Assembly: GCA_036563785.1 (NCBI GenBank)
Contig: DATCLR010000120.1
Location: forward strand, 4,998-68,997
Length of the DNA stretch: 64,000 nucleotides
DNA from: Burkholderiales bacterium
GTDB lineage: Bacteria; Pseudomonadota; Gammaproteobacteria; Acidiferrobacterales; Sulfurifustaceae
Reading direction: 5' to 3'
The translations under genes and the position numbers were made by a program. This document shows, piece by piece, positions 33,266 to 63,847 of the stretch. The notes under the pieces were generated by a model. The model saw only the letters and a program-made list of their open reading frames with translations, ran no database searches and was not told the origin of the DNA. Within the stretch, counting starts at the first letter, position 1. The number at the start of each line of letters is the position of its first letter.

Positions 33266-33279
33266 TTGACGCGCATCAA
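33266..33279. promoter_or_regulatory. FNR/Anr-type box TTGAC-GCGC-ATCAA
   Basis: One mismatch to TTGAT-N4-ATCAA. Centre about 66 nt upstream of the Spy/ZraP-like ATG, compatible with a class II position. Confidence 0.55.
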
Positions 33280-33338
33280 GGCGCGTCCGGTGCGGCGCGC
33301 GACACTGTGGTCGAACCCCAGCACGCAGAGGAGATGCC

Positions 33339-33983
33339 ATGGAACCGGGTAGTGCGCGCAGACTCTCGATCTTCACGCTATTCGCCGCCGCGGCCTTGGC
33401 CGCGGTAGCGCTCAACGCCGCCGCCGATCCGCCCGGCGGATGGGGTTACGGCCACGGGCCGGGCTACGGCATGGCGGCGGGCCCGTTCGGCTACGGCATG
33501 GGCCCCGGAATGACGGGAGGGATGGCTTACGCCGGGATGATGGGGGCTCACGGCACGATGGGGTACGGGCCGGGGCTCATGGGCTTCGGGCACGGCCTCG
33601 GGATGATGGGCGACTTCGGGCCGCTCGCCGCGCTCGACCTCAACGAGGAGCAGCGGCGGACAATCCGCGAAATTCGCAGGGAGCTGCGCCGTCTGCAGTG
33701 GGAGCTCGCCGGCAAGATGCTCGATGAGCACGCACAGCTCGAGGAAGTCTACGCCGAAGAGAAGCCGGATCCGAAAAGAGCCGGAGAGATCTACGCCCGC
33801 ATCGCGAAGCTGCAGCAGCAGAGCCTCGAAGCGCAGTTGAGCGCACGCAACCGCCTGCACGATGTGCTCACCGCCGAGCAGCGCGAGCGGCTCGAGCAGT
33901 GGCGGCGCGGCGGATTCGGACCCGGCGCTTACGGCCGTTACGGGCCGGGACCGATGCCCGGTCCGGGGATGATGCGACGGTAG
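33339..33983 (+). CDS. Periplasmic Spy/CpxP/ZraP-family (LTXXQ) protein with Gly/Met/His-rich repeats
   Basis: Signal peptide ending LNAAA-D. About 60 aa of GYG/GMG repeats. LNEEQRRTIREI and LTAEQRERLEQW LTXXQ-type helices. GAGGAG SD 5 nt before the ATG. Confidence 0.7.
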   Translation: MEPGSARRLSIFTLFAAAALAAVALNAAADPPGGWGYGHGPGYGMAAGPFGYGMGPGMTGGMAYAGMMGAHGTMGYGPGLMGFGHGLGMMGDFGPLAALDLNEEQRRTIREIRRELRRLQWELAGKMLDEHAQLEEVYAEEKPDPKRAGEIYARIAKLQQQSLEAQLSARNRLHDVLTAEQRERLEQWRRGGFGPGAYGRYGPGPMPGPGMMRR

Positions 33984-34048
33984 CGCGGGTTGCGGCGGCG
34001 CGGGCCGCGGCGCTTCAGTCGAAGGGCCGCGGGCGGCCGCGCCGATCG

Positions 34049-34432
34049 CTACGGGAAGATGCGGCGGGCGAGCGCCGCGGCGCGACCGTTCGCGGCGGAC
34101 GCGCCGACCGGCGCGGCGGCCTCCGGGCGCTCCTCGCCGTACAGATAGCTGCGAAGGCGCTCCGTGGTCGCCTCGGGCACGTTGCAGAACATCATCCCGA
34201 CGGCGTCCGGCGTGCTGCGCACGACGAGAGCGGGCAGGGTGAGCGTTTCGGCGGGGCTCAGCGAGAGCTCCAGCCTCACCAGCGTGTTCACCGGAATGCG
34301 GGAACCCACCGGCTCGACGCAGATGCCGCTCAGACTGAGATCGCGCGCTCGCGTGGCGAAGACGCCGTGCTGGGGAGAACGCAGGAGGACAGGACGCTGA
34401 CAGGGCTTTCGCACACTCCAGCGGTGTTCCAT
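34049..34432 (-). CDS. PilZ-domain protein
   Basis: MEHRWSVRKPCQRPV... with DLSLSGI (DxSxxG); the RxxxR half is imperfect. GGAGG SD before the ATG at 34432. Confidence 0.55.
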   Translation of the reverse strand: MEHRWSVRKPCQRPVLLRSPQHGVFATRARDLSLSGICVEPVGSRIPVNTLVRLELSLSPAETLTLPALVVRSTPDAVGMMFCNVPEATTERLRSYLYGEERPEAAAPVGASAANGRAAALARRIFP

Positions 34433-34686
34433 TGTTTTACCTCCGGTGTTGTTGCATATCTCCTCGCGGGCGGCATCAAAGCGGAACATATCTGGTGTCG
34501 TCCGCGCATTTTTTCAACTCGCCGGCGCGGGGCCGAATGGCGCGCCGGCTCAGCCGCTTCCGGATGGCCACCGTCGGTAGGCGCCCCGAATCGCTGCGTT
34601 TCGTGCGCGGCGCGTGCCAGGCGTGTCCTTCCTGCCGGGTTCGACTGGATATGCTCGCAGTCTATCGGCACGCCGCCCGGCGCCAT

Positions 34687-34700
34687 TTGATACAGGTCAA
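34687..34700. promoter_or_regulatory. FNR/Anr-type box TTGAT-ACAG-GTCAA
   Basis: One mismatch to consensus. Lies in a 378-nt non-coding gap, about 261 nt upstream of the PilZ ORF. Confidence 0.4.
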
Positions 34701-34753
34701 AGGCGCGGCGATCGGCGCTCGAAGAAGCTCGGGAGGGAACGAGAACGGGGCGT

Positions 34754-34778
34754 GCGCGGCGCAAAACGTGCGCCGCGC
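34754..34778 (-). terminator. Perfect 10-bp GC hairpin downstream of the DUF2934 ORF
   Basis: GCGCGGCGCA-aaacg-TGCGCCGCGC, about 35 nt after the stop at 34811. No U-tract, so intrinsic-terminator status is uncertain. Confidence 0.25.
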
Positions 34779-34810
34779 GAGCCGGACGATGGGCCCGGCT
34801 CGCGAGGAAA

Positions 34811-35086
34811 TCAGTGCGGCGTCGACTTGCGAGTGGTCGTGCGTCGCGTCGCGCGAGCGCTCGCTGTCGGCTCTGCCGTGAGCACCGGATGATTGTCGAC
34901 GAGCGTCGCGGCGATTTCGCGCTCGGCCGCGAACCAGTCCTCCTCGGGGCTGCCGCCTTGAAAGCCGCGGCTCAGCGCGCGGAAGTACGCGGCCTCGGCG
35001 ATCATGCGGTGACGTTCCTCGGCGGTGACGACAGGCGCCGGGGTCGGCTGCCTGCTGCTGCGGGTCTTGGCCTTCTGTTTCGACAC
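34811..35086 (-). CDS. DUF2934-type small protein
   Basis: GTG at 35086 preceded by AGGAG. Core motif EERHRMIAEAAYFRALSRGFQGGSPEEDWFAAEREI. A paralogous motif occurs at 58255... Confidence 0.6.
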   Translation of the reverse strand: MSKQKAKTRSSRQPTPAPVVTAEERHRMIAEAAYFRALSRGFQGGSPEEDWFAAEREIAATLVDNHPVLTAEPTASARATRRTTTRKSTPH

Positions 35087-35243
35087 GATGGGCTCCTGTG
35101 GTGGTGGTGCGTGCGCGGCGTCGGCACGGTCGCGCCGCGCGACAAGGATGCGGCGAGTATTCTTCGGCGATTTCGTCGTGCAGGCAAACCGGTGCGGATG
35201 AACGCGCACGGCCGCACGATGAGTGCATTCGGCGCGAGCGCGG

Positions 35244-36848
35244 CTATGCCGCATGGGTTGCGAGGCGCGCGCACACGCGGCGCCATTCGGTATGGGCCGC
35301 CGCGCTGTCCGGCGGCAGCGCCGCGTTGAAGCGCTCCACCCGATCGAGCTCGTCCGGGGCGAGCGGCTCGTGCGTCGCGAGCTGGTGCTCGAGCACGGCA
35401 ACGTCGGCTTCGGAAGCATCGCGGGCGCTGCGCGCACGTGCGGCGAGCCGCGCGCGCAGCGTCGCTTCGTCGACGGCGAAATCGACGATGACGAACGGAA
35501 CGCCGCGCGCCGCGGCCAGGCGGCGGAACGCGTCGCGCGGCGCACGCTGCAGGAAAGTCGCGTCGACGACGGCGCTGTAGCCGGCGGCGAGCACGTGCCC
35601 GGCGAGCTCGAGCAGGCGGGCATAGGTGCGTGCCGTCGCGTCGGCGGCGTAAACGCCTTCGGAGATTCCGGAGCCCGTGCGCGCCAGCGCGGGCAGCCCG
35701 TGCAGCCGCTTGCGTTCGACGTCGGAGCGCAGCCGCACCGCGTCGATGGCTTCGATCAGCGCCTGCGTGTGGGTCGTCTTGCCGCTGCCGGAGAATCCGT
35801 GCGTCACGACGAGCGCCGGCCGGCGCGGCTCGGTTTCGCGCCGGGCGAGAGCGAGGTAAGCGCGGTACTGCGCAACGAGGCGTGCGCGGGCGGCGTCGTC
35901 CACGCCGGGCTGGTGCGCGCGCAGCCAGTGAACCTTGGCCCGCACGAGCGCACGGTAAACGACATAGAAGGGCAGGAGCGCGAGACCCGGATAATCGCCC
36001 GTGTGCTCGAGGTAGCGGTTGAGGAAGCGCCGGGCGAAATCCGGCCGCCTCCGATCTTGCAGGTCCATGACCGTGAAGGCGATCTCGTTGATGACGTCGA
36101 TCCAGCGAAGGTCGGCGCTGAACTCGAGCGCGTCGAAGATCGTCACGCGATCGTCGATCAGCGCGACGTTGCCGAGATGCAGATCGCCGTGGCATTCGCG
36201 CACGCAGCCCGCGCGCTTGCGACGGCGGAACTCCGGGTCGAGCGCGTCGAGCTGCGCCGTAGTCCAGCGCTCGAGGGCGGCGAGCGCCGACATGTCGGGC
36301 GCCGCTCCTGCGGCGCGGATCTGCGCGAAGTTGTCCCGCGCCGGGGTCGCAATGGCGGCCGGGGTGCCGTACCCGTCGGCCGGGCTCGCGACGGCCGCGC
36401 GCGCGTGGAATTCGGCGACCTCATCGGCGAGCGCGTCGATGTGCGCGCCGGTCAGCCGCCCCTCGGCGATCAGTCGGCTGAGGAGCTGCTCCTGCGGGAA
36501 GCGGCGCATCTTGACGGCGTACTCCATGACGGGACCGGCGCCGCCCAGCACCGGCCGGTCGGGCGAGCCGGTAACGGGCACCACGTCGAGATAGAGATCG
36601 CGGGCGAGGCGCCGGTTCAGCCGCAGCTCCTCCTCGCAGTAGTGCTTGCGTGCCGAGAGCGTGCGGAAATCGAGGAAGCCGAGGTCGACGGCTTTCTTGA
36701 TCTTGTACGCGTAGTCGCCGGCAAGGAGGACGTAGGAGATGTGCGTTTCGAGGCGTTCGACGCGCTCCACCGGATGCGGATAGCGGCGCGGATCCTGCAG
36801 CGCTGCAATCAATGTCTCCTGTTCGACGATTGCTCCGGTGTGCGTCAT
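35244..36848 (-). CDS. Bifunctional aminoglycoside-phosphotransferase-like kinase / P-loop ATP-binding protein
   Basis: 534 aa. N-terminal APH/protein-kinase-like fold (ETHISYVLLAGDYAYKIKK, HGDLHLGN) and a C-terminal P-loop domain (THGFSGSGKTT). Confidence 0.8.
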   Translation of the reverse strand: MTHTGAIVEQETLIAALQDPRRYPHPVERVERLETHISYVLLAGDYAYKIKKAVDLGFLDFRTLSARKHYCEEELRLNRRLARDLYLDVVPVTGSPDRPVLGGAGPVMEYAVKMRRFPQEQLLSRLIAEGRLTGAHIDALADEVAEFHARAAVASPADGYGTPAAIATPARDNFAQIRAAGAAPDMSALAALERWTTAQLDALDPEFRRRKRAGCVRECHGDLHLGNVALIDDRVTIFDALEFSADLRWIDVINEIAFTVMDLQDRRRPDFARRFLNRYLEHTGDYPGLALLPFYVVYRALVRAKVHWLRAHQPGVDDAARARLVAQYRAYLALARRETEPRRPALVVTHGFSGSGKTTHTQALIEAIDAVRLRSDVERKRLHGLPALARTGSGISEGVYAADATARTYARLLELAGHVLAAGYSAVVDATFLQRAPRDAFRRLAAARGVPFVIVDFAVDEATLRARLAARARSARDASEADVAVLEHQLATHEPLAPDELDRVERFNAALPPDSAAAHTEWRRVCARLATHAA

Positions 36849-36989
36849 GCCGGCTCCGCATATCGGGTGCCCGGTCGCCGCCGCAAGGGGTTCGCGGCTC
36901 CCGCGCAGAATCCCGCGGCGCCGCTGTGGGAAGTCGTGTCGGAAGGCGTCGCCACGACGTACAGCCTACTGCATGGAGGGCCGGGAGCG

Positions 36990-37003
36990 TTGATCGAAAT
37001 CAA
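36990..37003. promoter_or_regulatory. Perfect FNR/Anr box TTGAT-CGAA-ATCAA
   Basis: Exact consensus palindrome. Centre about 148 nt upstream of the kinase ATG at 36848, in the 274-nt gap downstream of capA. Confidence 0.65.
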
Positions 37004-37122
37004 ACTATCCCCGGCGCGGATGGAAGCGCGCCGCGGCACCGGATTGCCGTGATTCGGGAAACGGCACTCGGGGCAAGGGCCTGCGCTCGACGCGAGGGCG
37101 CGGTGTTGCACGCCGGCCCGTC

Positions 37123-38250
37123 CTAGCGCCAGTCGAGCTCGACCAGCCCATCGGCGGCGAAGCGCGCCGAAGTGCCCAGTGCACGGCCTTCGTGCACGAG
37201 CACGGCGCGCAGCCATTCGGCGTCGCGTGAACGTGCACGGTTTACGCGCAGACGCCGCACCTGTATCGGCGCGAGCCGCAGGCGCAGCAGCCGTCCGCTC
37301 GCGGCGTCGAGCGTCGGGAAGTACATGAACGAGAGATCGCCGCGATATGCCTCGTATCCGCGAATGCCTTCGTAGTCGGTGAGGAAATCGCCGCAGCCGT
37401 AGAGAATCAGCCGATCGCGATATACCTCGATCCCCTTGACGTGGTGCGACGAGTGCCCGTGGATGAGATCGATTCTTGCGGTGTCGATGAGGCCATGAGC
37501 GAACGCGCGCTCGTCGGGAGTGATCCCGTAGCCCCAGTTGGCACCCCAGTGCACTGACGCGATTGCGACGTCCCCGCGGCGCTTATGGCGTTGCACCGCT
37601 TCCGCGATGGTCTGAACGCTTCGCGCGGAGAGGTCGTGCAGGAGGCGGATGCCGGCGCGGTTGCGCCCGGCGGCCCACGCGGCGGGCACGCCGCTGCTTG
37701 CGTGAGCGAAGGCGAAGACGAGGACGCGCCAGGATCCGGCCGGCAGCACGGCGGGAGCCGCGGCTTCGGCCGCATCGCGGCCGGCGCCGGCCGTACGGAT
37801 GCCGGCGGCGTGCAGAACGGAGAGGGTGTCGCACAGGCCTTCGTGGCCCCAGTCGAGCACGTGATTGTTCGCGAGCGCACAGCAGTCGATGCCGCCGACG
37901 ACCAGGCAGCCGACGTTGTCGGGGTGCATGCGATAGTGGATGCCCTTGCTCGGCCACGCGGCTTCCGACACCGTGACGGCGGTTTCGAGGTTGACCACGC
38001 GCGCATGCGGGCGCAGCCGCCCGAGCGCGTCGAGCGCCTCTCCCCAGACGTAGCGGTCGTCGACGCGGCGCGGCAGCTGGCCGACCGCGGCCTCGGCGAG
38101 GTGAACGTATTCGCGCGCATCGCGCGCCGCGGGCTCGTAGAGGTGCGGCGCGCTCGGATGGCGCAGGATCTGGTCGACGCCGCGGCCGGTCATCACGTCG
38201 CCGCAAAGGAACAGCGTCAGCTCCGGATCGGATCGCGTCTCGGACGGCAT
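37123..38250 (-). CDS. CapA-family (PGA_cap metallophosphatase-fold) protein
   Basis: ATG at 38250 with GGAGG SD. LFLCGDVMTGRGVD, ANNHVLDWG and IHGHSSHH motifs. The upstream part of listed ORF 37123..38994 is discarded. Confidence 0.85.
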   Translation of the reverse strand: MPSETRSDPELTLFLCGDVMTGRGVDQILRHPSAPHLYEPAARDAREYVHLAEAAVGQLPRRVDDRYVWGEALDALGRLRPHARVVNLETAVTVSEAAWPSKGIHYRMHPDNVGCLVVGGIDCCALANNHVLDWGHEGLCDTLSVLHAAGIRTAGAGRDAAEAAAPAVLPAGSWRVLVFAFAHASSGVPAAWAAGRNRAGIRLLHDLSARSVQTIAEAVQRHKRRGDVAIASVHWGANWGYGITPDERAFAHGLIDTARIDLIHGHSSHHVKGIEVYRDRLILYGCGDFLTDYEGIRGYEAYRGDLSFMYFPTLDAASGRLLRLRLAPIQVRRLRVNRARSRDAEWLRAVLVHEGRALGTSARFAADGLVELDWR

Positions 38251-38270
38251 CGTCACCTCCGTGCTCGGTG

Positions 38271-38289
38271 GGCGAACGCGGCGTTCGCC
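38271..38289. promoter_or_regulatory. Perfect 9-1-9 palindrome GGCGAACGC-g-GCGTTCGCC in the capA / acidic-ORF divergent region
   Basis: Read directly from the sequence, 21-39 nt upstream of the capA ATG. Candidate operator or leader hairpin. Confidence 0.35.
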
Positions 38290-38352
38290 TAAACGTTCGA
38301 CGGCGCGGCCGATCAAAGATTGAAGCACACGACGCAAAGGAGCGCAGAGGCC

Positions 38353-38757
38353 ATGGCGATCGAAGAGCGGCCGATCGTGAATCAGTGGTACCGGCACCTC
38401 GACAAGGGCTACCGCTTCCAGGTAACCGCTGTCGATGAGAAGGCGGGCGCCGTCGAGATCCGGCATTTCGGCGGCGACACCGACGAGCTCGATCTCGACC
38501 AGTGGCCCGATCTCGACATCGAGCCCACCGAGCCGCCTGAGGATTGGCCCGAGCCGATGGACGAGACCGAACGCGAAGAACTCGGCTACGGAGAGGTGGA
38601 CATGAGGCCCGAGAGCTGGGGCGAGTCGCTCGTCGAGGAAGCGGAGCACCCTTACGAAGGAGGCGAGGAGGAAGAAGAGGGGGAGGAAGTGGGCCCGGCC
38701 TGGCTGGAACCCGAGGAAGGCGGAACGCCCGAAGAGGAAGAAGAGGAAGAGGAGTAA
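38353..38757 (+). CDS. Highly acidic hypothetical protein with poly-Glu C-terminus
   Basis: MAIEERPIVNQWYRHLDKGYRFQVTAVDE... ending GGEEEEEGEE...TPEEEEEEEE. AAGGAG 10 nt before the ATG at 38353. Confidence 0.5.
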   Translation: MAIEERPIVNQWYRHLDKGYRFQVTAVDEKAGAVEIRHFGGDTDELDLDQWPDLDIEPTEPPEDWPEPMDETEREELGYGEVDMRPESWGESLVEEAEHPYEGGEEEEEGEEVGPAWLEPEEGGTPEEEEEEEE

Positions 38758-39077
38758 GCGCACGGCCCGACGGCGAGGCCGGCGGCGATGGTGTTCCTCT
38801 GGGTGCTCGCCGTCTTCGCATCCGCGGCGAACGGAATGGAGCGCGGTCACTCTCGGCGCGGCCGCCTTCGGCCAGGAGACGCCGGCGCTGCTCGCGCGCG
38901 GCGGCGCTGCGTGCGCACGGAGACTGGGCACGCCGCCCGTACGTCTTCTTGCAGGCGACGGCGCCCGGGCTCGATACTCTCGTCGTCGGCGCATTCGACG
39001 ACGAGGCGGTGCACGGGACGGCGCGGCTGCCGCGCGATCGAGCGGCGCTGTACCTCATGCCCGCCGGGCACCGTCGT

Positions 39078-39091
39078 TTGACTTGCATCAA
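39078..39091. promoter_or_regulatory. FNR/Anr-type box TTGAC-TTGC-ATCAA
   Basis: One mismatch to consensus. Centre about 145 nt upstream of the Lon-like protease ATG, inside a 472-nt non-coding gap. Confidence 0.55.
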
Positions 39092-39229
39092 GACGGCGCA
39101 ATGCGGTTGCTCTAGCGTTGCGCCGGTGGGACATCCCGGGGAGAGACACGCGTTATGAGGGCTACTGTCGGCATCATCGCGGCGGCTGCGCGCGGGCGCG
39201 CGGCCCGCGCGGGCTAGGGCGGATCGCGC

Positions 39230-41653
39230 ATGGACGGAACGCCGCAGACACCGAGCGCTCTGCCGCCCGAAGCGCTGTACCGGCGTGTCGAGACCGCCGC
39301 TTGGGCGTTTCGAACCACCGACGATCTCGAGGACCTGGCCGAAGTGATCGGCCAGGCGCGCGCCACCGAAGCGATTCGCTTCGGCGTCGGCATGGACGGC
39401 GACGGCTACAACCTGTACGTGCTGTCGCCGCCGGGCACCGGCGGCCACGCCGTCGTGCGCGAGCTGCTGCAGGAGCGCGCGCGGCACGAGCCGGTGCCGA
39501 GCGACTGGTGCTACGTCAACAACTTCGAGCACCCGCACCGCCCGCGCGTGCTGCGTCTGCCTGCCGGTCTGGGGACGAAGCTGCGCGACGACATGCGGGA
39601 GCTCATCACGGACCTCGAGGGCGCGATTCGGGCGGCGTTCGAGAGCGACGAGTACCGCGCCCGCCGGCACGAGCTCGAGCAGAGCATGAAGGAGCGCCAC
39701 GAGCAGGCGTTCGGGGAGCTCGGGCGCCGCGCCGCGGAGCAGAGCATCATCCTCATGCGCACGCCGACCGGCATGGCGTTCGCGCCGACGCGCGACGGCG
39801 AGGTCATGACGCCGGGCGAGTTCGAGAAACTTCCGGCGGAGGAGCAGCAGCGCATCACCGACGCGATCGGAGGGCTGCAGGAGGAGCTGCGGCGCATCCT
39901 GGAGCAGATTCCGCAGTGGCAGCGCGAAGCGCAGCAGCGGATCCGTGCGCTCGACCGCGAGGTGGTGCACGCGGCGGTCCGGCACCAGATCGCCGCGATC
40001 AAGCAGAAGTACAGCGCGCTGCCCGCGGTGCTCGAGTACCTCGACGCGGTCGAAGCTTCCGTGATCGAGCACGCCGACGACTTCCGCGTGGAGGACGGCG
40101 CCGAGTGGCGGCCATTCGGCTTCGTGGCGTCGGCGCGCGAAGCGCTGCGGCGGCGCTACGGCGTAAACGTGCTGATCGACAACGGGAGCACCGAGGGTGC
40201 GCCCATCGTTTACGCAGACAATCCGACGTATCCCGAGCTGATCGGCCGCATCGAGCACCTGGCGCAGATGGGTGCGCTGGTCACCGACTTCATGCTGATC
40301 AAGCCGGGCGCGCTGCATCGCGCCAACGGCGGCTATCTGGTGATCGATGCGCGGCGCGTGCTGATGCAGCCGTACGCGTGGGAAGGGCTCAAGCGCTGCC
40401 TCGCCTCGAACGAGATCCGCGTCGAGTCGCTCGGGCAGATGCTGTCGCTCATCAGCACCGTGTCGCTCGAGCCCGAGCCCATACCGCTCGACGTCAAGGT
40501 GGTCCTCGTCGGGGAGCGCCTCCTCTATTACCTGCTCTACAACCTCGATCCCGACTTCCGCGAGCTGTTCAAGGTGGCTGCGGATTTCGAAGAGGACATG
40601 GACCGCAGCCCCGAGACGCAGCGGCTCTACGCGCGGCTCGTCGCGACGCTGGTGCGGCGCCATCGACTGCGGCCGTTCGATCGCGACGCCGTGGCGCGCG
40701 TGCTCGAGCACGGCGCGCGGCTCGCGGGCGACGCCGAGAAGCTTTCGATCCGCACCCAGGAAATCGCCGACCTGCTGCGCGAGGCGGACTACTGGGCGCG
40801 CGAGGAGGGCTGCGACACCGTGGCGCGCGGGCACGTGCAGCGGGCGATCGCGGCGCGCCTGCGCCGCAGCGACCGCGTGCGCACGCGGATACAGGAAGAG
40901 ATCCGGCGCGGCACGCTGCTCATCGACACCGCGGGGCGCCGGCTCGGCCAGGTGAACGGCTTGTCCGTGGTGCGGCTGGGGGACGCCGAGTTCGGCTACC
41001 CGACGCGCATCAGCGCGCGCGTGCGCCTCGGCAAGGGCGAGGTCATCGACATCCAGCGCGAGGTGGACCTCGGCGGACCGATTCACTCGAAAGGGGTCCT
41101 GATCCTCGCCGGATTCTTCGGTGCGCGCTATCTGCCCGACCGGCCGCTCGCGCTCGCGGCCACGCTCGTGTTCGAGCAGACCTACGGTCCCGTCGACGGC
41201 GATTCGGCCTCCTGCGCCGAGCTGTGCGCCCTGGTGTCGGCGCTCGCCGACGTTCCCCTGCGCCAGGATCTCGCGATCACCGGTTCGGTGAACCAGTACG
41301 GCGAGGTGCAGGCGATCGGCGGCGTGAACGAGAAGATCGAGGGCTTCTTCGACACCTGCAACGCGCGCGGGCTGACGGGCGAACAGGGAGTCATCATTCC
41401 CGCGGCCAACGTGAAGCACCTCATGTTGCGCGAGGACGTGGTCGCCGCCTGCAGCGAGGGCCGCTTTGCGGTCTATCCGGTGACGAACGTCGACGAGGCC
41501 TTCGAGCTCCTGACCGGTCTGCCGGCCGGGACGCGCGGCGACGACGGCCAGTTCCCCGCGGACAGCGTGAACGGCCGCGTCGAGGAGAAGCTCCGGCGGC
41601 TCGCGGAGCAGGCGCACGAATTCGCGCGCGGCGAGGAGCGGGCGCGGTCGTGA
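39230..41653 (+). CDS. LonC-like (Lon-family, AAA_32-type) protease
   Basis: 807 aa. N-terminal AAA-like region with a non-canonical P-loop (LSPPGTGGHAV, no GK[ST]). Long helical insertion. C-terminal Lon protease domain with Ser-Lys dyad context (VDGDSASCAE; GGVNEKIEGF). Confidence 0.85.
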   Translation: MDGTPQTPSALPPEALYRRVETAAWAFRTTDDLEDLAEVIGQARATEAIRFGVGMDGDGYNLYVLSPPGTGGHAVVRELLQERARHEPVPSDWCYVNNFEHPHRPRVLRLPAGLGTKLRDDMRELITDLEGAIRAAFESDEYRARRHELEQSMKERHEQAFGELGRRAAEQSIILMRTPTGMAFAPTRDGEVMTPGEFEKLPAEEQQRITDAIGGLQEELRRILEQIPQWQREAQQRIRALDREVVHAAVRHQIAAIKQKYSALPAVLEYLDAVEASVIEHADDFRVEDGAEWRPFGFVASAREALRRRYGVNVLIDNGSTEGAPIVYADNPTYPELIGRIEHLAQMGALVTDFMLIKPGALHRANGGYLVIDARRVLMQPYAWEGLKRCLASNEIRVESLGQMLSLISTVSLEPEPIPLDVKVVLVGERLLYYLLYNLDPDFRELFKVAADFEEDMDRSPETQRLYARLVATLVRRHRLRPFDRDAVARVLEHGARLAGDAEKLSIRTQEIADLLREADYWAREEGCDTVARGHVQRAIAARLRRSDRVRTRIQEEIRRGTLLIDTAGRRLGQVNGLSVVRLGDAEFGYPTRISARVRLGKGEVIDIQREVDLGGPIHSKGVLILAGFFGARYLPDRPLALAATLVFEQTYGPVDGDSASCAELCALVSALADVPLRQDLAITGSVNQYGEVQAIGGVNEKIEGFFDTCNARGLTGEQGVIIPAANVKHLMLREDVVAACSEGRFAVYPVTNVDEAFELLTGLPAGTRGDDGQFPADSVNGRVEEKLRRLAEQAHEFARGEERARS

Positions 41654-42489
41654 GCGGGCGCGCGCAACCGGCGATCCGCCGCATCCTGGTGGCGCTCGAC
41701 GCTTCCACCGGAAGCGTGGGAGCGCTGCGCGCCGCGGCGGCGGTCGCGGCCGCGGCGTCGGCGGAGCTCGCGGCGCTGTACGTGGAAGACGTGAACCTGC
41801 TGCATCTCGCGGCGCTGCCGTTCGCGAGCGAGGTCGATCCGATCTCCGGACGGGCGCGGCCGCTGCAGCGCGAAGGCATGGAGCGGCTGCTGCGTGCGCA
41901 GGGTCTGCGGGCGCAGCAGGCGTTCGTCCAGGCGACCGCACACCTGCGCGCGAGCTGCAGCTTTCGCGTGACGCGGGGGAGGATCGTGCCGGCGCTGCTG
42001 CAGGCGGCGCTCGAGGCCGACCTCGTCGCTCTGGGGGCGATCGGGAGCGTTTCGGCGGCGCGCGGCGGGCTCGGTTCGATCGCCCGTGCGGTGATCGCCG
42101 AAACCGAGCGGCCGGTCCTGATCCTGCCGCACGGCGCGGCGCTGCGGCCGCCGATCGCGGTGGTCGTCGACGCCGCGAGCGGCGCGGGCGACGCGCTCGC
42201 GTTCGGCGCGCACCTCGGCGGATACTTTCCTTCGTCGGAGCTCGTCGTATTGCTGATCGCGGCCGGTCCGAAGCAGGCGCAGGCGCTGCGGGACGCCGCG
42301 GAAGCCGTCCTCGCCGGGACGGAGGCCCGTTACCGCGCCGTCGACGCCGCCGACGTCGACACGCTCGGCCGCGCGCTGCGGGCCGAGCGCGTCGGGACGC
42401 TGGTGCTGTCGCGCACGAGCCCCTCTCTCTCCGTCGAATCCCTCGGTGAGCTGCTCGGACGCACGAACGTAGCCGTGCTGCTAGTCTGA
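41650..42489 (+). CDS. Tandem universal-stress-protein-like (USP) domain protein
   Basis: GTG at 41650 overlaps the lon stop (GTGA). RRILVALDAS... The first domain keeps G-x2-G-x9-GS (GAIGSVSAARGGLGS). The second domain (IAVVVDAASG...) is degenerate. Confidence 0.6.
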   Translation: MSGRAQPAIRRILVALDASTGSVGALRAAAAVAAAASAELAALYVEDVNLLHLAALPFASEVDPISGRARPLQREGMERLLRAQGLRAQQAFVQATAHLRASCSFRVTRGRIVPALLQAALEADLVALGAIGSVSAARGGLGSIARAVIAETERPVLILPHGAALRPPIAVVVDAASGAGDALAFGAHLGGYFPSSELVVLLIAAGPKQAQALRDAAEAVLAGTEARYRAVDAADVDTLGRALRAERVGTLVLSRTSPSLSVESLGELLGRTNVAVLLV

Positions 42490-42609
42490 TCCGGCGCACC
42501 GGTTTGCACCTCGAGGCCGCCGCGCGCGGGCGAGCGCGCGGTTGACGCCGCGGTGCGGGCGCTGCACGATCCTGACGGTGCGACGGCATAACGGCAGGGA
42601 GGGCGGCCC

Positions 42610-44517: not shown

Positions 44518-44559
44518 GAATTGCGGCGCGTCGCGCCGTCGTCGGCGGGGCCGCGGAGG

Positions 44560-46833: not shown

Positions 46834-46847
46834 TTGATCCGTGTCAA
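46834..46847. promoter_or_regulatory. FNR/Anr-type box TTGAT-CCGT-GTCAA
   Basis: One mismatch to consensus. Centre about 61 nt upstream of the CMD/AhpD-like ATG. Overlaps a second palindrome, CACGGAT-tg-ATCCGTG (46828-46843). Confidence 0.5.
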
Positions 46848-46901
46848 AACATTGTTCCGTCGCCCGCGGTTAGCATGCGCTGGTCCACCAGGAGACACGC
46901 C

Positions 46902-47267
46902 ATGAGCAAGAACTTCGTACAGGTCGCACAGGATGTGAGAGGCGGCAGCCGAGAGCTGCGCGAGGCGGCGCCGGAGGTGATGAAGGCGTTCGCGGCGCTC
47001 GCGCAGGCGGCCACGGCGGCCGGCGCGCTCGACACGAAGACGAAGGAGCTGATCGCGCTGGCGCTGGGAATCGCCGGGCGCTGCGACGGCTGCATCGCGC
47101 ATCACACCCGCGTCGCCGTGCAGCTCGGCGCGACGCGCCTGGAGATCGCGGAGACGGTGTCGGTCGCCGTTTACATGGGCGGCGGGCCCGCCAGCATCTA
47201 CGGCGCCGAAGCGCTGCGCGCGTACGACCAGCTCGCCGCGCAGGCGGGCGCGCCAGCGCGAACCTGA
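46902..47267 (+). CDS. Carboxymuconolactone decarboxylase / AhpD-like family protein
   Basis: TKELIALALGIAGRCDGCIAHH (CxxC of the AhpD fold). ATG at 46902 inside the listed ORF. Confidence 0.8.
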   Translation: MSKNFVQVAQDVRGGSRELREAAPEVMKAFAALAQAATAAGALDTKTKELIALALGIAGRCDGCIAHHTRVAVQLGATRLEIAETVSVAVYMGGGPASIYGAEALRAYDQLAAQAGAPART

Positions 47268-47292
47268 TTCGATTCGAGCGGCCGGTCGAGCG

Positions 47293-58254: not shown

Positions 58255-58938
58255 ATGAGCATGTCGAGAGCGCAGGCAGCCGGAGACGGTCGAGGCACCT
58301 ACGCGCGCCCCTCGCCCGAGGAACGGCGGCGCATGATCGCGGAAGCGGCTTATTACAAGGCGCTCAACCGCGGCTTCCAGGGCGGTGATCCGGTCGAGGA
58401 CTGGCTGGCCGCCGAGCGTGAGATCGACGCGATGTTCCCGAATCCCGAGCAGCAGCGCGAGGAAGCAGACCTCTACGAGAAGCTGCGCGCTGCGCTCAAG
58501 GACCTGCTCGCCGAAGCGCAGGCCGTGAACGCGGACACGCTGCGTCAGGCGTTCGAGCGGGCGACGGCCGACCTCAAGCGCACCGGACGCTACACGGCGG
58601 AGACGATCGCCAAGGTGGCCGCGTCGCTGCGCAAGGACATTGCGAGCACGGCGGTGAAGCTCGGACCGCGCTGGGAGGATCTGTCGCGCCGCGGCGGCGA
58701 TCTGTTCGAGGTGTGGCGCGACCGCGGCGCGATATTTCTGTCGCAGGCGGCGACGGCGGTCGGCGAATGGCTGCGGCAGACGGGCACCCGATTCGGCCAG
58801 CAGACCTACCGCGCGGGCGAGATGGTGTACAAGGGCGCGTTCGAGTGTACCGCGTGCGGCGAGCGCCTGACGTTGCCGGAATCCGCGCACCTGCCGCCGT
58901 GCCCGCGCTGCCAGGCGCTCGAGTACCGGCGTCACTGA
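58255..58938 (+). CDS. DUF2934-motif protein with C-terminal CxxC...CxxC zinc ribbon
   Basis: EERRRMIAEAAYYKALNRGFQGGDPVEDWLAAEREI has 29 of 36 residues identical to the ORF at 34811..35086. C-terminus is FECTACGERLTL...PPCPRCQALEY. Confidence 0.55.
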   Translation: MSMSRAQAAGDGRGTYARPSPEERRRMIAEAAYYKALNRGFQGGDPVEDWLAAEREIDAMFPNPEQQREEADLYEKLRAALKDLLAEAQAVNADTLRQAFERATADLKRTGRYTAETIAKVAASLRKDIASTAVKLGPRWEDLSRRGGDLFEVWRDRGAIFLSQAATAVGEWLRQTGTRFGQQTYRAGEMVYKGAFECTACGERLTLPESAHLPPCPRCQALEYRRH

Positions 58939-59077: not shown

Positions 59078-60880
59078 TCAGTCCGCCTCGCGCTCCGGCA
59101 CGCAGCAGAGCCGCGCGGCCTCCGGTGCGGCCTCGAGCACGCCGCCGGTGATGGTGTTCGGCCGGTAGGTGGTGCAGCCCTTCAATCCCTGCGCGTAGGC
59201 GTAGCGGTAGATGTCCTTGAATTCCTCGAACGGGAAATCCGCCGGCACGTTGATCGTCTTCGAGATCGAGCTGTCGACGTACGGCTGCAGCGCCGCCTGC
59301 ATATCGAGGTGCGCGGCCGGCGGCAGCTCCTGCGCGCTCACGAACGCGCGCGGGAGCGGCTCGTCGCCGCGCAGCGCGCGCCAGCGCTCGAGCGCGTAGT
59401 CGGTGAGCTCGTACTCGCGCGTGCTGCCGTCGAGCTCGAGCACGCGGCGGCGGTAGCGGAACGCGTACACCGGCTCGATGCCGCTCGAGACGTTGTTCGC
59501 GAGCAGGCTTATCGTGCCGGTCGGTGCGATCGCCGTCAGGTGGCTGTTGCGGATGCCGTAGTTCCTGATCCCTTCCTGGATGTCCTCGGGCAGCCGACGG
59601 ACGAACTCGCCCGCGAGATAGCGCTCGTGCTCGAAGAAGGGGAACGGGCCCTTTTCGCGCGCGAGCGCGATCGAGCAGCGGTAGGCTTCGTGGCACACGG
59701 TGCGCATGACGCGCGCCGCGAGCTCGCGGGCCGGCGGCTCGCCGTAGTGCAGCCCGAGCATGAGGAGCGCATCGGCGAGGCCGGTGAGGCCGAGACCGAT
59801 GCGCCGCGCGCCGTTCGCCATTTCCGCCTGGCGCTCGAGCGGGAAGCGCGAAACGTCGATGACGTTGTCCATCATGCGCACCGCGATGCGCGCCGTCGCG
59901 GCGATGCCGTCGAGATCGAGCGAGGCTTTCTCGGTGAACGGATCGCGCACGAACGCGACGAGATTGATCGAGCCGAGGTCGCAGGCGCCGTAGGGCGGAA
60001 GCGGCAGCTCGCCGCACGGGTTCGTCGCGCTGATGTGCTCCCGATACCAGAGGTTGTTGAGCCGGTTGATGCGATCGACGAAGAGCACGCCCGGCTCGGC
60101 GTATTCGTAGGTCGCGCGCATGAGCTTTTCCCAGAGCGCGCGCGCCCGCACGCGCCGATAGACGCGGCAGGGCACCGGCGCGAGCGCGCCGGACCAGCGG
60201 CGCATCACGATTTCGCCTTCGTCGGCGCGCGCGGGGAACACGAGCGGCCACTCCGCATCGGCCTCGACCGCCTGCATGAACTCGTCGGTCACGAGCACCG
60301 ACAGGTTGAAGTTCCGCAGCTCCCCGGGCGTCTGCTTCGCCGCGATGAAGGTCTCGATATCGGGGTGATCGCAGCGCAGCGTCGCCATCATGGCGCCGCG
60401 GCGCGCGCCGGTGGACAGCAGCGTCGCGCACATCGCGTCCCAGATACGCATGAACGATACCGGTCCGGAGGCGACGCCGCCGACCGCGCGGGCCGGCGCC
60501 CCGCGCGGACGCAGGGTCGAGAAGTCGTAGCCGACGCCGCCGCCCTGCTGCATGGTGAGGGCGCCCTCCTTGAGACCGTCGAAGATGCCGTCCATGGAGT
60601 CCTCGATCGTGCCCATGACGAAGCAATTGAAAAGCGTCACGCGCCGCCCCGTTCCCGCGCCGGCCTGAATGCGCCCGCCGGGCAGGAAACGGAATCCGGC
60701 GAGGGCCTCGTAGAAACGCTCCACCCAGGACGGATCCTTCTCCGGCGCGGCCAAGGCACGCGCGATGCGGCGCCACGTGTCCTCGATGGTCGCCTCGAGC
60801 GGCCCTTGCTCTGTCCGGAAGCGGTACTTGGTGTCCCAGATGTGGTACGCGATCGGAGTCGTGAACGGCGCGGTGGTCAT
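59078..60880 (-). CDS. nrdJ: Class II (adenosylcobalamin-dependent) ribonucleotide reductase
   Basis: ATG at 60880 inside the listed ORF. ATNPCGELPLPPYGACDLGSINL active-site region and C-terminal KGCTTYRPN. Confidence 0.9.
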   Translation of the reverse strand: MTTAPFTTPIAYHIWDTKYRFRTEQGPLEATIEDTWRRIARALAAPEKDPSWVERFYEALAGFRFLPGGRIQAGAGTGRRVTLFNCFVMGTIEDSMDGIFDGLKEGALTMQQGGGVGYDFSTLRPRGAPARAVGGVASGPVSFMRIWDAMCATLLSTGARRGAMMATLRCDHPDIETFIAAKQTPGELRNFNLSVLVTDEFMQAVEADAEWPLVFPARADEGEIVMRRWSGALAPVPCRVYRRVRARALWEKLMRATYEYAEPGVLFVDRINRLNNLWYREHISATNPCGELPLPPYGACDLGSINLVAFVRDPFTEKASLDLDGIAATARIAVRMMDNVIDVSRFPLERQAEMANGARRIGLGLTGLADALLMLGLHYGEPPARELAARVMRTVCHEAYRCSIALAREKGPFPFFEHERYLAGEFVRRLPEDIQEGIRNYGIRNSHLTAIAPTGTISLLANNVSSGIEPVYAFRYRRRVLELDGSTREYELTDYALERWRALRGDEPLPRAFVSAQELPPAAHLDMQAALQPYVDSSISKTINVPADFPFEEFKDIYRYAYAQGLKGCTTYRPNTITGGVLEAAPEAARLCCVPEREAD

Positions 60881-60947
60881 CGCTGGTTCCTTCGGACGAC
60901 AGCTAACAGCATAACCAAGCGTGCCCGGCACGTCTCGCGGCAAGCGG

Positions 60948-60961
60948 TTGATTTGGATCAA
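60948..60961. promoter_or_regulatory. Perfect FNR/Anr box TTGAT-TTGG-ATCAA between divergent nrdJ and usp
   Basis: Exact consensus palindrome. Centre about 74 nt from the nrdJ ATG and about 96 nt from the usp ATG. Confidence 0.7.
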
Positions 60962-61050
60962 AGCGGCGCCGCCGCAGTAAGGTAGCCTCTTTTTTCGAGG
61001 GCATTTCTGGGTGAGGATTGCGGGACAACGACGAAACCGCGGAGCAGATA

Positions 61051-61494
61051 ATGTACAAGAACCTGTTGATCGCCACCGATGGATCGCCTAGGTCCCGCAA
61101 GATGGTGCAGGAGGGAGTGAAGCTCGCGAAGGCGCTCGATGCCCGGGTCGTCGGGGTGCACGTCTACCCCGCGCATTTCGGCCTCACGTACGGGAAGGTG
61201 GGTGTCATCGATGCGCGCACGCAGGTGCGGTTGCGTGCAATCGCGCGCAAGGAAGGAGAGCGTTATCTCGAACAAGTGCGCCAGGCGGCAGAGCGCGCCG
61301 GCGTTCCCTGCGAGACGGCGCTGCTCGAGCACGATCAGGTCTGGAAGGCGATCATCGACACTGCGCGCAAGCGCCGCTGCGACTTGATTCTCATGGCGGC
61401 GCACAGCCGCGGGCCGCTGGCCCGGCTGGTGCTCGGGAGCGAGACGAACAAGGTGCTGATGAACTCGAAGATCCCGGTGCTGGTGTACCGCTGA
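61051..61494 (+). CDS. Universal stress protein (UspA family)
   Basis: MYKNLLIATDGSPRS..., C-terminal LVLGSETNKVLMNSKIPVLVYR. Confidence 0.85.
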   Translation: MYKNLLIATDGSPRSRKMVQEGVKLAKALDARVVGVHVYPAHFGLTYGKVGVIDARTQVRLRAIARKEGERYLEQVRQAAERAGVPCETALLEHDQVWKAIIDTARKRRCDLILMAAHSRGPLARLVLGSETNKVLMNSKIPVLVYR

Positions 61495-61528
61495 TCCGGC
61501 GGGCACGCCGCTCGAACCACGCGAGGAG

Positions 61529-61978
61529 GTGCGCATGTTCAAGAACATCCTGATTCCGACCGACGGTTCCGAGATGTCCGAAGACGCGGCGCGCAAGGGG
61601 GCGGCGCTCGCCAAGCTGCACGGTGCACGCATCGTCGGCGTGCACGTGTTCCCGGTGAGCCTCGGCATTTACTACGGCGAGGCCGTGTGGGTGGACGAGA
61701 CCATGCGTACCCAGATGCAGGAAGCCGCGGCGGCCGAAGGGCGCAAGTACCTCGACAAGCTGGAAGAGATCGTGCGCGCCGAGGGGGTGCCGTTCGAGCG
61801 CGTGCTGATCGAGGGCGACAGCCCGTGGCAGGGGATCGTCGAAACCGCCGACCGCAAGGGCTGCGATCTCATCGTGATGGCGGCGCACGGCCGGCGGGGC
61901 ATCGCGGCGGTGCTGCTGGGAAGCGAAACCAACCGGGTGCTGACGCACACCAAGATACCCGTGCTGGTCTACCGGTGA
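61529..61978 (+). CDS. Universal stress protein (UspA family)
   Basis: MFKNILIPTDGSEMS..., AAHGRRGIAAVLLGSETNRVLTHTKIPVLVYR. The start is either 61529 or 61535. Confidence 0.85.
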   Translation: MRMFKNILIPTDGSEMSEDAARKGAALAKLHGARIVGVHVFPVSLGIYYGEAVWVDETMRTQMQEAAAAEGRKYLDKLEEIVRAEGVPFERVLIEGDSPWQGIVETADRKGCDLIVMAAHGRRGIAAVLLGSETNRVLTHTKIPVLVYR

Positions 61979-62102
61979 GAGTCCCGATTCCGGCGGCGCC
62001 CGTTGCGCGCTTTCCCCGTTCGACCGGGGTGGTCCGCCGCTATAGACTGGCGTCGTCGGCCTCCGGACGGACCACAGGCCGCACGGACGACACGGAGGTG
62101 TC

Positions 62103-62750
62103 ATGCGCTTCAAGGATCGCAAGGACGCCGGCCGGCAGCTCGCGGAGCTCCTCGCCGGCCGTTACGCCGGTATCGACGGCATCGTCTACGCTCTGCCGCG
62201 CGGCGGGGTGGTCCTCGGCGCCGAAGTCGCACGGCGGCTCGGGCTTCCGCTCGATCTCATCATCGCGCGCAAGATCGGCCACCCGCGCAATCCCGAGTAC
62301 GCGATCGGCGCCGTCACCGAGCAGGGAGAGCTCGTGACGAATCCGCGCGAAATCGAGTCGGTGCGGCGCGAATGGCTGGCGCGCGAGATCGAGAAGGAGC
62401 GGCGCGAGGCCGAGCGCCGCCACGCGGTGTACCTCGATGGGCGAACGCCGCTCTCGGCCGCCGGCCGCACGGCGATCCTCGTGGACGACGGCATCGCGAC
62501 CGGCCTCACCATGCTCGCGGCCATCCGCGCGGTGCAGCGCCAGAACCCCGCGCGTGTCGTCGTCGCGGTTCCGGTGGTGCCCGCCGACACCGCGGCGCAG
62601 CTCGAGCGGGAAGCGGACGAGGTCGTCGCGCTCGATGTGGCGGCGGACTACCTCGGTGCGGTCGGAGCCTACTACGACGACTTTCCTCAAGTCACCGACG
62701 GCGAAGTCGTCGAGCTCCTGCACGCGATGGAGCGCGAGACGTCCGCGTAG
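62103..62750 (+). CDS. Phosphoribosyltransferase-domain protein
   Basis: MRFKDRKDAGRQLAELL N-terminus and PRPP loop ILVDDGIATGLTM. Confidence 0.8.
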   Translation: MRFKDRKDAGRQLAELLAGRYAGIDGIVYALPRGGVVLGAEVARRLGLPLDLIIARKIGHPRNPEYAIGAVTEQGELVTNPREIESVRREWLAREIEKERREAERRHAVYLDGRTPLSAAGRTAILVDDGIATGLTMLAAIRAVQRQNPARVVVAVPVVPADTAAQLEREADEVVALDVAADYLGAVGAYYDDFPQVTDGEVVELLHAMERETSA

Positions 62751-62821
62751 CGAGACGTGCGTATGGCGGCGGGTTCCGGGTGGCGTCGCGCCGAGGGGCG
62801 CCTGTCGTACGAGGCGGCGGC

Positions 62822-63847
62822 GTGACGACGGTCGATGGTGCGCTCGCCTGGCCGCTCGAACGCAAGGTCGCGCTGCTCGCGCGTCCCGACTGCTACCCCG
62901 AGCGCCCCGCGCGTGTCGAAACCATCGAAACCCACATGTCGTGGGTGTTCCTGACTGCAACGCGCGCCTACAAGCTCAAGAAGCCGGTACGCCACGCCTT
63001 CCTCGACTACAGCACGCTCGCGGCGCGCGAGCACTATTGCCGCGAGGAAGTGCGCGTGAACCAGCCGCTCGCGGCGAGCGTGTATCTGGGCGTCGAAGCG
63101 CTCACCGTGGACGCCGACGGGCGCGCCGCGCTCGGGGGTCGCGGCACGCCGATCGAGTGGCTTGTCGTGATGCGCCGGCTCCCCGCGGCATGCCTGCTGG
63201 ACGCGGCGATCCGGGCGGGCACCGCCACGCGCCCGGCGGTCGCGGCGGCGGCCGAACGGCTCGCGGAATTCTACCGCAACGCGGCGCCCGTGACGCTGAG
63301 CGGCGAAGCGTATCGCCGCGCCTGCCGGACGCGCATCGAGGAGAACCGCGCGGTGCTCGGGGATCGGGCACACGGTCTTGCGCCGACGCTCGTGGCGCAA
63401 GTGCACGACTGGCTGACCGGCGCGCTCGAACGCGAGGCGGCGGCGTTTGCGCGCCGCGCGGAGGAGGGACGCATCGTCGACGGGCACGGCGACCTGCGGC
63501 CGGAGCACGTGGCGCTCGAGACGCCGCCGGTCGTCATCGATCGGCTCGAGTTCGACCGCAACCTGCGGCTGCTCGACGCGGTCGAGGAGCTCGCGTTCCT
63601 CGCGATGGAGTGCGAGCGCCTCGGCGCGCCGTGGGTGCGGGCGGTGCTGTTCGACGCCTACACCCGCGCAACCGGCGACGCCGCGCCCGAAGCGCTCGTG
63701 CGCTTCTACACCGTGCACCGCGCCTGCGTGCGCGCGCGCCTCGCGGCGCTACACACCGTCGATCTCCCGCCCGCCACTTGGCCGAAGTGGCGCGCGCGGG
63801 CGCGCGAGTATCTCGAGCTCGCGCGGGCACACGTTTCCGGCGCGTGA
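62822..63847 (+). CDS. APH-like phosphotransferase domain protein (paralog of the N-terminal half of 35244..36848)
   Basis: GTG at 62822 inside listed ORF 62003... ETHMSWVFLTATRAYKLKKP, HGDLRPEH. No P-loop domain. Confidence 0.7.
   Translation: MTTVDGALAWPLERKVALLARPDCYPERPARVETIETHMSWVFLTATRAYKLKKPVRHAFLDYSTLAAREHYCREEVRVNQPLAASVYLGVEALTVDADGRAALGGRGTPIEWLVVMRRLPAACLLDAAIRAGTATRPAVAAAAERLAEFYRNAAPVTLSGEAYRRACRTRIEENRAVLGDRAHGLAPTLVAQVHDWLTGALEREAAAFARRAEEGRIVDGHGDLRPEHVALETPPVVIDRLEFDRNLRLLDAVEELAFLAMECERLGAPWVRAVLFDAYTRATGDAAPEALVRFYTVHRACVRARLAALHTVDLPPATWPKWRARAREYLELARAHVSGA

Follow-up and report, generated by a model that had tools for sequence, protein, structure and literature searches.

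We analysed a 64-kb stretch of DNA (the window; contig DATCLR010000120.1 of GenBank assembly GCA_036563785.1) in which a first-pass annotation had noticed a series of intergenic dyads resembling FNR/Anr-type boxes. We estimate with a probability of about 0.8 that six strong dyads and a weaker one upstream of pat are sites for a CRP/FNR-family regulator that would be encoded outside the window and would control seven transcription units by class II activation. We envision a scenario in which a dimeric regulator with the DNA specificity of the FNR/Anr/FixK/Dnr class binds the boxes, whose centres would lie ~41.5 bp upstream of the predicted transcription starts, and in which the bound dimer takes the place of the -35 element and recruits RNA polymerase. 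At least seven units would be switched on together: pat, a Spy/CpxP-like gene, a PilZ gene, an AAA_33 P-loop kinase gene, a LonC-like protease gene with its universal stress protein (USP) gene, an AhpD/CMD-like gene and a pair of USP genes. The signal would most likely be oxygen limitation, and the region would then correspond to the lxa locus of Burkholderia cenocepacia and the Anr stress regulon of Pseudomonas aeruginosa. The sequence itself shows the sites with their enrichment, intergenic position, constant distance to -10-like hexamers and selective conservation; what we infer is where transcription starts, that the boxes activate and do not repress, which regulator binds them and that oxygen is the signal. 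The earlier proposal that FNR/Anr-type sites define a candidate regulon is supported by the class II spacing between boxes and -10-like hexamers, by conservation in a syntenic relative, by recurrence of boxes at LonC–USP loci in other genomes and by mismatches that follow the Anr/Dnr consensus.

FNR-type boxes in intergenic DNA

All seven dyads listed in the first pass were recovered with the same positions and sequences. The six strong boxes are TTGACGCGCATCAA before the spy-like gene (33266..33279, plus strand), TTGACCTGTATCAA before pilZ (34687..34700, read on the minus strand), the perfect TTGATTTCGATCAA before the AAA_33 kinase gene (36990..37003, read on the minus strand), TTGACTTGCATCAA before lonC (39078..39091, plus), TTGATCCGTGTCAA before the CMD/AhpD-like gene (46834..46847, plus) and the perfect TTGATTTGGATCAA between the divergent nrdJ and usp genes (60948..60961, plus). 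The box before pat, TTGATGCTCGTCAT (30485..30498, plus), is weaker and is among the two-mismatch matches. When the window was subjected to 100 dinucleotide shuffles, TTGAT-N4-ATCAA with at most one mismatch was expected 0.19 times; seven matches were observed, a number that no shuffle reached. Exact matches to the Anr/Dnr form TTGAY-N4-RTCAA numbered six, against 0.04 expected. These counts bear out the first-pass view that chance is a very unlikely source of the sites, and the estimate on which that view was based, ~0.002 perfect sites per 64 kb, fits the measured GC content, which is uniform along the window (0.65-0.74 per 2 kb, mean ~0.70). Furthermore, in an unbiased scan of the intergenic DNA of the window that ranked all 5-mer dyads with spacers of 0-10, TTGAT-N4-ATCAA came first. 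Each of the four imperfect intergenic sites departs from this consensus solely at the inner base of one half-site (TTGAC or GTCAA; position 5 or 10), and therefore all six strong boxes fit TTGAY-N4-RTCAA exactly. The Anr/Dnr consensus in PRODORIC is likewise TTGA(T/C)N4(A/G)TCAA (PMC4860495).

Because GC-rich DNA is full of spurious open reading frames (ORFs), genes were chosen with a codon-usage likelihood map and the chosen ORFs were annotated with Pfam and NCBIfam; Pfam scans covered the predicted ORFs except four standard fatty-acid-synthesis genes. On this map intergenic DNA makes up 10.3% of the window and holds six of the seven matches with at most one mismatch (binomial P = 7.6e-6). 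The non-coding location reported for the listed sites holds both on this map and on the gene calls of the syntenic relative L081, described below. Intergenic regions fall into two classes, those that have a site with two or fewer mismatches and those that have nothing better than three to four. In agreement with the earlier statement that the housekeeping half is free of boxes, even the best sites in the intergenic regions of 1-30264 have four or more mismatches. The first-pass annotation had also placed the regulon across an accessory half of the window. The boxed promoters, seven in number, do fall within 30485-60961, with none in 1-30264, but much of the right half carries no box: the intergenic scan found none at the MacAB–outer-membrane protein (OMP) operon, the aldehyde dehydrogenase/aminotransferase genes, rtcA, the cytochrome c gene, the toxin–antitoxin pair or the phosphoribosyltransferase (PRTase) gene. 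Nor is the term accessory established, since the GC content does not vary along the window and, apart from one gene, 27440-48233 shares its gene order with the relative.

Two further matches were set aside. The first, TTCATGCTGATCAA at 40289-40302, was not on the earlier list; it lies inside the LonC-like gene, and through its mismatch the TGA core loses its G. Orthologues from unrelated phyla (L001, L008 and L032), as well as L081, carry an identical string at the same codon position, and no -10-like hexamer lies at the right distance from it. On both grounds we regard it as a coding coincidence that reflects protein conservation. A match at 61066 was also rejected as a coding coincidence.

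Spacing of boxes and -10-like hexamers

On the strand that faces the gene, all seven boxes are followed at 21-23 nt by a -10-like hexamer, which is TAnnnT in six cases and GACACT in the seventh. The hexamer lies 21 nt after the box at pat (TATCAT, 30520..30525, plus; box centre ~-40.5), at the spy-like gene (GACACT, 33301..33306, plus; weak, and departing from TAnnnT), at the AAA_33 kinase gene (TAGGCT, 36963..36968, minus), at lonC (TAGCGT, 39113..39118, plus) and at usp (TAGCCT, 60983..60988, plus). The distance is 22 nt at pilZ (TAGACT, 34659..34664, minus; box centre ~-41.5) and 23 nt at the CMD gene (TAGCAT, 46871..46876, plus; box centre ~-42.5). The hexamers of pat, the spy-like gene, pilZ, the kinase gene, lonC and the CMD gene are conserved in L081. 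TAnnnT at 21-23 nt is thus found after five of the six strong boxes and after the pat box, against a background of 1.1% of intergenic positions per orientation. A composite pattern of box and hexamer, with the hexamer 20-22 nt past the end of the box, occurs at five promoters and 0.00 times in shuffles; the CMD promoter, with its hexamer at 23 nt, is outside this range. If the hexamer is taken as -12 to -7, the box centres come to lie at -40.5 to -42.5, and transcription would start near 30532, 33313, 34652 (minus strand), 36956 (minus strand), 39125, 46883 and 60995. Among directly FNR-activated promoters of Escherichia coli with known starts, 19 of 23 have sites at -41.5 ± 4 (PMC3688515).

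The distances from box centres to start codons agree with those given in the first pass: 66.5 nt for the spy-like gene, 148.5 nt for the AAA_33 kinase gene, 145.5 nt for lonC and 61.5 nt for the CMD gene. For pilZ the distance is 204.5 nt to the ATG at 34489 and ~259 nt to the shorter, 128-aa start implied by L081, the latter close to the earlier value of 261. A generic sigma-70 scan requiring a -35 element returned nothing in 30200-39300, and a terminator scan was likewise empty. The missing -35 elements lend weak support to promoters that depend on an activator, with the box in place of the -35 element.

Conservation in a syntenic relative

The relative used for footprinting, L081, is a contig of GCA_036381895.1 that was found in a protein search with the LonC-like protein of the window (92% identical). 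It is syntenic with window 27440-37003 and 39058-48233 at ~86% nucleotide identity. The pat box is identical in the two genomes (TTGATGCTCGTCAT, L081 3063) and in L081 it lies within a 40-nt conserved block, upstream of which the DNA diverges. At the spy-like gene the spacer has changed and the half-sites are kept (TTGACGCGCATCAA in the window, TTGACGTACATCAA at L081 5846). At pilZ the TTGAY/RTCAA half-sites are kept and three of the four spacer bases have changed (TTGATACAGGTCAA at window 34687, TTGACGGAAATCAA at L081 7258). The other aligned pairs are TTGATCGAAATCAA at window 36990 with TTGACCGGGATCAA at L081 9567, TTGACTTGCATCAA at window 39078 with TTGACGTGCATCAA at L081 9840, and TTGATCCGTGTCAA at window 46834 with CTGATCCGTGTCAA at L081 17872, the last of which has one extra mismatch. 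Across the six aligned intergenic regions, 55 of 60 half-site positions and 35 of 36 hexamer positions are identical, compared with 16 of 24 spacer positions and 790 of 1079 positions (73%) in other intergenic DNA; the functional positions differ from the remainder with Fisher P = 1e-6. Half-sites that are kept while their spacers drift are the signature of a protein-binding dyad.

Alternative explanations

Several observations weigh against the model proposed here. As the first-pass annotation had stated, no gene for a CRP/FNR-family regulator lies in the window: Pfam scans of the predicted ORFs other than the four fatty-acid-synthesis genes and a tblastn search with E. coli FNR as a homology probe were both empty. 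Among 87 other loci a search for FNR genes found one, in L038, which is uninformative for the organism of the window. The window also contains no canonical target from anaerobic respiration and no cbb3 oxidase, and oxygen enters the model by analogy. Of the genes present, the most classical low-oxygen target would be nrdJ, which is without class II geometry and its relatives are without a box, as described below. In addition, the -10 elements were assigned by matching a pattern in DNA of high GC content, with that of the spy-like gene (GACACT) weak, and the closeness of L081 limits the resolution of the footprinting.

The alternative that survives best retains the same sites and class II activation and differs in the regulator. 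This could be a FixK-type protein, controlled via the haem-based oxygen sensor FixLJ, or a Dnr/NnrR-type regulator that responds to nitric oxide (NO); oxygen would then act on the promoters indirectly, or NO would replace O2 as the signal. FixK, Dnr and Anr share the TTGAT-N4-ATCAA core, and the sequence of a site cannot separate them (PMC4860495; PMC12071387). For the lxa locus of Burkholderia, the current proposal is that its motif binds FixK acting downstream of FixLJ (PMC12071387). NCBI names the window's closest relative 'Burkholderiales bacterium', and boxes in L053, a locus discussed below, adjoin ccoNO (fixNO). However, Pfam scans of the window found neither fixLJ or fixK nor denitrification genes, the latter of which would favour Dnr/NnrR. 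The window thus offers no means of telling these regulators apart, and we consider FixK- or Dnr-type control somewhat unlikely, though a serious candidate.

It is improbable that the sites serve a CRP/Vfr/Clp-type regulator responding to cAMP or cyclic di-GMP, or act as operators for a repressor, with a signal unrelated to oxygen. A TGA-N6-TCA core is common to the CRP family and a PilZ gene is among the putative targets. However, the base 5' of the TGA core, T or G, discriminates FNR from CRP sites, and in the six strong boxes every one of the 12 half-sites has TTGA/TCAA rather than the GTGA/TCAC of CRP, Vfr and Clp sites. With regard to a repressor, predicted box centres at -41.5 and no -35 element in the scanned 30200-39300 constitute the geometry of activation.

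Another reading is that the dyads, which are 14-bp palindromes, form the inverted ends of a larger element or belong to a dispersed repeat or mobile element of the repetitive extragenic palindrome (REP) or miniature inverted-repeat transposable element (MITE) type. Two of the boxes flank a PGA_cap/CapA-like gene (37123-38994, minus strand), which sits exactly between boxes 36990 and 39078 and is missing from L081; there, the boxes matching these two are 273 nt apart and synteny breaks exactly at the end of the 36990 box. Outside box and hexamer, though, the seven promoters share a mean identity of 30%, the random level at the composition of the window, and with such unrelated flanks they are not copies of a repeat. 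No two of the sites, moreover, have the same N4 spacer. A 56-nt remnant of PGA_cap persists in L081 (L081 9752-9803, corresponding to window 38287-38341) and suggests that the gene was deleted in that lineage rather than inserted in the window, and both boxes are present in L081 without the gene. A repeat or mobile element is thus very improbable. The PGA_cap gene itself has no -10-like hexamer on its strand at class II distance from box 39078.

Finally, the match at 40289 exemplifies exactly what chance, compositional or coding by-products without a regulatory role look like, but for the intergenic dyads such an origin has a negligible probability, given that none of 100 shuffles reached the observed count, that the sites favour intergenic DNA (P = 7.6e-6), that hexamers follow at a fixed spacing and that conservation is selective.

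Boxes at LonC–USP loci in other genomes

The box at 39078 precedes a gene for a LonC-like ATP-dependent protease (807 aa) and an overlapping USP gene (279 aa), which together span 39230..42489 on the plus strand (Pfam). The USP gene (41650-42489) starts 4 nt before the end of lonC (overlap 41650-41653), and the two genes are a probable operon. A contig search with LonC returned distant orthologues (≤62% identity), which were used in a test for recurrence. A box with at most one mismatch lies within 350 nt upstream in 12 of the 82 LonC-like loci that have enough upstream sequence, compared with ~1.3 expected from the overall box density of the loci. In L082 and L083, whose LonC is 73% identical, there are two boxes each, and the proximal box is followed at 22 nt by TAAGGT or TAGGGT. 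L053, from a Rhodospirillales metagenome-assembled genome, has boxes between ccoN/ccoO (FixN/FixO), which are classical FixK/FNR targets, and the LonC–USP operon. L009 has a box between an HSP20 gene and LonC. The pairing of LonC with USP is conserved in L081-L083 and in L053, and its presence across distant Proteobacteria suggests a functional module.

These data identify the LonC–USP pair as a repeated neighbour of FNR/FixK-type boxes, and by its upstream sequences it is likely to be a target of such a regulator. The papers listed by a literature search on this association did not contain the term 'Lon-like protease'. Tentatively, we raise the possibility that the LonC-like protease/USP operon belongs to the core of FNR/FixK-type hypoxia regulons throughout the Proteobacteria, as a widely conserved member that has not yet been described, joined here by Pat, the Spy-like protein and PilZ under the same regulator. 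In place of respiratory functions, such a regulon would tie oxygen limitation directly to regulated proteolysis, protein acetylation, envelope proteostasis and second-messenger signalling.

The predicted lonC leader contains an upstream ORF of 20 codons (39155-39217; MRATVGIIAAAARGRAARAG). It is kept in L081 with an in-frame 3-nt indel and is absent from L082 and L083.

The nrdJ–usp intergenic region

The perfect box at 60948 lies between nrdJ, for a class II B12-dependent ribonucleotide reductase (59078..60880, minus; TIGR02504 above cut-off), and two tandem USP genes (61051..61978, plus; 61051-61494 and 61529-61978; Pfam), the first of which most likely starts at the ATG at 61051. Class II geometry is found solely toward the USP genes. 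Toward nrdJ, the sole -10 candidate, TATGCT, would place the box near -53.5. Three relatives of nrdJ (L084-L086, 77-82% amino acid identity) all have no box upstream. L087, the 99% relative in the nrdJ comparison and a 93.5%-identical contig from a near-identical organism, has an identical intergenic region including the box and is too close to be informative for footprinting. In Pseudomonas aeruginosa the box in the nrdJ promoter is functional and its mutation abolishes anaerobic induction (PMC4860495). Judged by these sequences, and with the P. aeruginosa precedent in mind, control of nrdJ by the box at 60948 seems doubtful and class II activation of nrdJ is probably not to be expected. An Rfam scan found no cobalamin riboswitch upstream of this B12-dependent gene (60881-61017).

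In other genomes nrdJ repeatedly adjoins genes for USP, phosphoribosyl pyrophosphate (PRPP) synthetase-like proteins, nicotinate phosphoribosyltransferase (NAPRTase) or PRTase (L084 and L086; L087 1639-5131 is an extension of the present locus). Its surroundings may represent a nucleotide/NAD salvage neighbourhood.

Relation to described low-oxygen regulons

By analogy, the closest described system is the lxa locus of Burkholderia cenocepacia J2315 (BCAM0275a-0323). This locus comprises 50 genes with an Anr-like motif at 17 intergenic points and holds six USPs, a class II ribonucleotide reductase and ABC/OMP transport genes; its expression rises up to 240-fold at 6% O2, and the bacterium needs it to survive anoxia (Sass et al. 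2013, PMC3721108). Both lxa and the window are chromosomal clusters from Burkholderiales in which an Anr/FNR-like dyad with a TGA-N6-TCA core occurs at many intergenic points, and both have multiple USP genes along with a class II ribonucleotide reductase and an ABC transporter accompanied by an outer-membrane protein. In the window, the link of nrdJ to a box is doubtful and the transporter operon has no box. The boxed LonC-like, pat, Spy-like, PilZ, AAA_33 kinase and AhpD/CMD genes are absent from the lxa genes in the excerpts of Table 4 and the text of that paper. Additional genes of lxa are those for an alpha-crystallin, alcohol dehydrogenases, acetate kinase, polyhydroxyalkanoate (PHA) functions and FtsH (PMC3721108), and lxa itself encodes an Anr-like regulator (BCAM0287) and two-component systems, whereas the window encodes no regulator. 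The overlap in gene content, as judged from these excerpts, is partial, and low-oxygen induction is a demonstrated property of lxa and a predicted one of the boxed genes.

The Anr/Dnr regulon of P. aeruginosa has the same consensus as the window, TTGA(T/C)N4(A/G)TCAA (PMC4860495), and USP genes, which are among the putative targets here, are direct Anr targets there (Trunk et al. 2010, cited in PMC3721108). The core of that regulon, however, is made up of denitrification, arginine fermentation and cbb3 oxidases, all of them missing from the window, and its sites are dispersed, whereas those of the window are clustered in ~30 kb. FNR class II promoters of E. coli resemble the window in having a 14-bp dyad centred ~41.5 bp upstream of the start, here a predicted one, and overlapping the -35 region, and in tolerating partial matches to the consensus (Myers et al. 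2013, PMC3688515). They differ in that E. coli FNR targets are mainly genes of anaerobic respiration and fermentation, and the -10 elements of the window have the TAGnnT flavour typical of a GC-rich genome. The DosR regulon of Mycobacterium tuberculosis is hypoxia-induced, rich in USPs and includes a ribonucleotide reductase, and its functional parallel to lxa has been pointed out (PMC3721108; PMC12071387). DosR is a functional analogue only: it is a NarL-type response regulator that recognizes an 18-bp palindrome and has no sequence relationship to the system described here.

Operator, promoter geometry and target type all follow textbook FNR/Anr biology and involve no new regulatory principle. 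Mildly new are the set of targets (LonC-like/USP, Pat, Spy-like, PilZ and AAA_33 kinase) and the recurrent association of LonC–USP with FNR/FixK boxes. If our model is correct, an uncultured, GC-rich, Burkholderiales-like bacterium would have a delimited hypoxia/stress regulon of non-respiratory functions, including a protease, USPs, an acetyltransferase, a periplasmic chaperone, a PilZ protein and a kinase. This would extend the lxa/Anr picture beyond cystic fibrosis pathogens and would put forward the LonC-like protease/USP pair, which is poorly understood, as a low-oxygen target that recurs.

Putative target genes and other features of the window

The left 30 kb of the window is of housekeeping character, with comEC, exbBD, msbA, lpxK, kdsB, rne, rluC, sppA and maf as well as plsX-fab-acpP, mltG, tmk, holB, pilZ, tatD and others. 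The right part begins with pat, the Spy/LTXXQ gene, the second PilZ gene, a DUF2934 gene, the AAA_33 kinase gene, the PGA_cap/CapA-like gene and the LonC-like protease gene with its overlapping USP gene. It continues with a phosphodiesterase gene, a ParDE pair, unknowns and genes for cytochrome c, AhpD/CMD, aldehyde dehydrogenase and an aminotransferase, and its far end holds the MacAB-HlyD-OMP operon, rtcA, a DUF2934-DUF1451 gene, nrdJ, the two USP genes and the PRTase gene. An Rfam scan of the whole window gave zero matches, and no known small RNA was found in the long intergenic regions.

Among the putative targets, pat (30580..33258, plus) encodes an 892-aa protein, called at the same length in L081, in which NDP-forming acyl-CoA synthetase-like domains are fused to a GNAT domain of the protein acetyltransferase type (Pfam, NCBIfam). 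The box at 33266 begins 8 nt past the pat stop codon and precedes a gene (33339..33983, plus) for a 214-aa Spy/CpxP/ZraP-like periplasmic protein with LTXXQ and Metal_resist matches (Pfam, NCBIfam). The PilZ-domain protein is encoded on the minus strand at 34049..34489 (Pfam), with its start at 34489 or, as in L081, at ~34435. Its predicted leader (34490-34652, minus) is long, at 163-217 nt, and contains a block conserved in L081, CCGGCGAGTTGAAAAAA[T/C]GCGCGGACGACACCAG, with a single T/C difference and no Rfam match. The AAA_33 kinase gene (35244..36848, minus) encodes 534 aa with a C-terminal AAA_33/zeta-toxin-like P-loop kinase domain (Pfam), and the gene at 46902..47267 (plus) encodes a 121-aa AhpD/carboxymuconolactone decarboxylase-family protein (Pfam, NCBIfam).

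Two genes in the window contain DUF2934, one at 34811-35086 (91 aa), which adjoins the pilZ box, and one at 58255-58938, fused to DUF1451, which adjoins rtcA. A pair consisting of a ParD-like antitoxin (Unstab_antitox) and a ParE toxin (43979-44517) lies inside the boxed region and is kept in L081. Two adjacent, paralogous small genes on the minus strand (47293-47733 and 47766-48260) have the common C-terminal motif …RERYALKALRGDF… and are conserved in L081; they have a weak YgaP-like transmembrane match and belong to no clear family. They are followed by 1 kb without an intact gene (48261-49286), in which overlapping frames (48416-48931 and 48904-49335) match HD_4, the RelA/SpoT-type HD domain; this is probably a frameshifted pseudogene. 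Synteny ends near this point, with L081 at 48233 and with L087 at 49290, and both relatives instead have a gene for an SMC_N or AAA_15/OLD-TOPRIM-type ATPase at this position. The region is thus a variable spot and is possibly defence-related.

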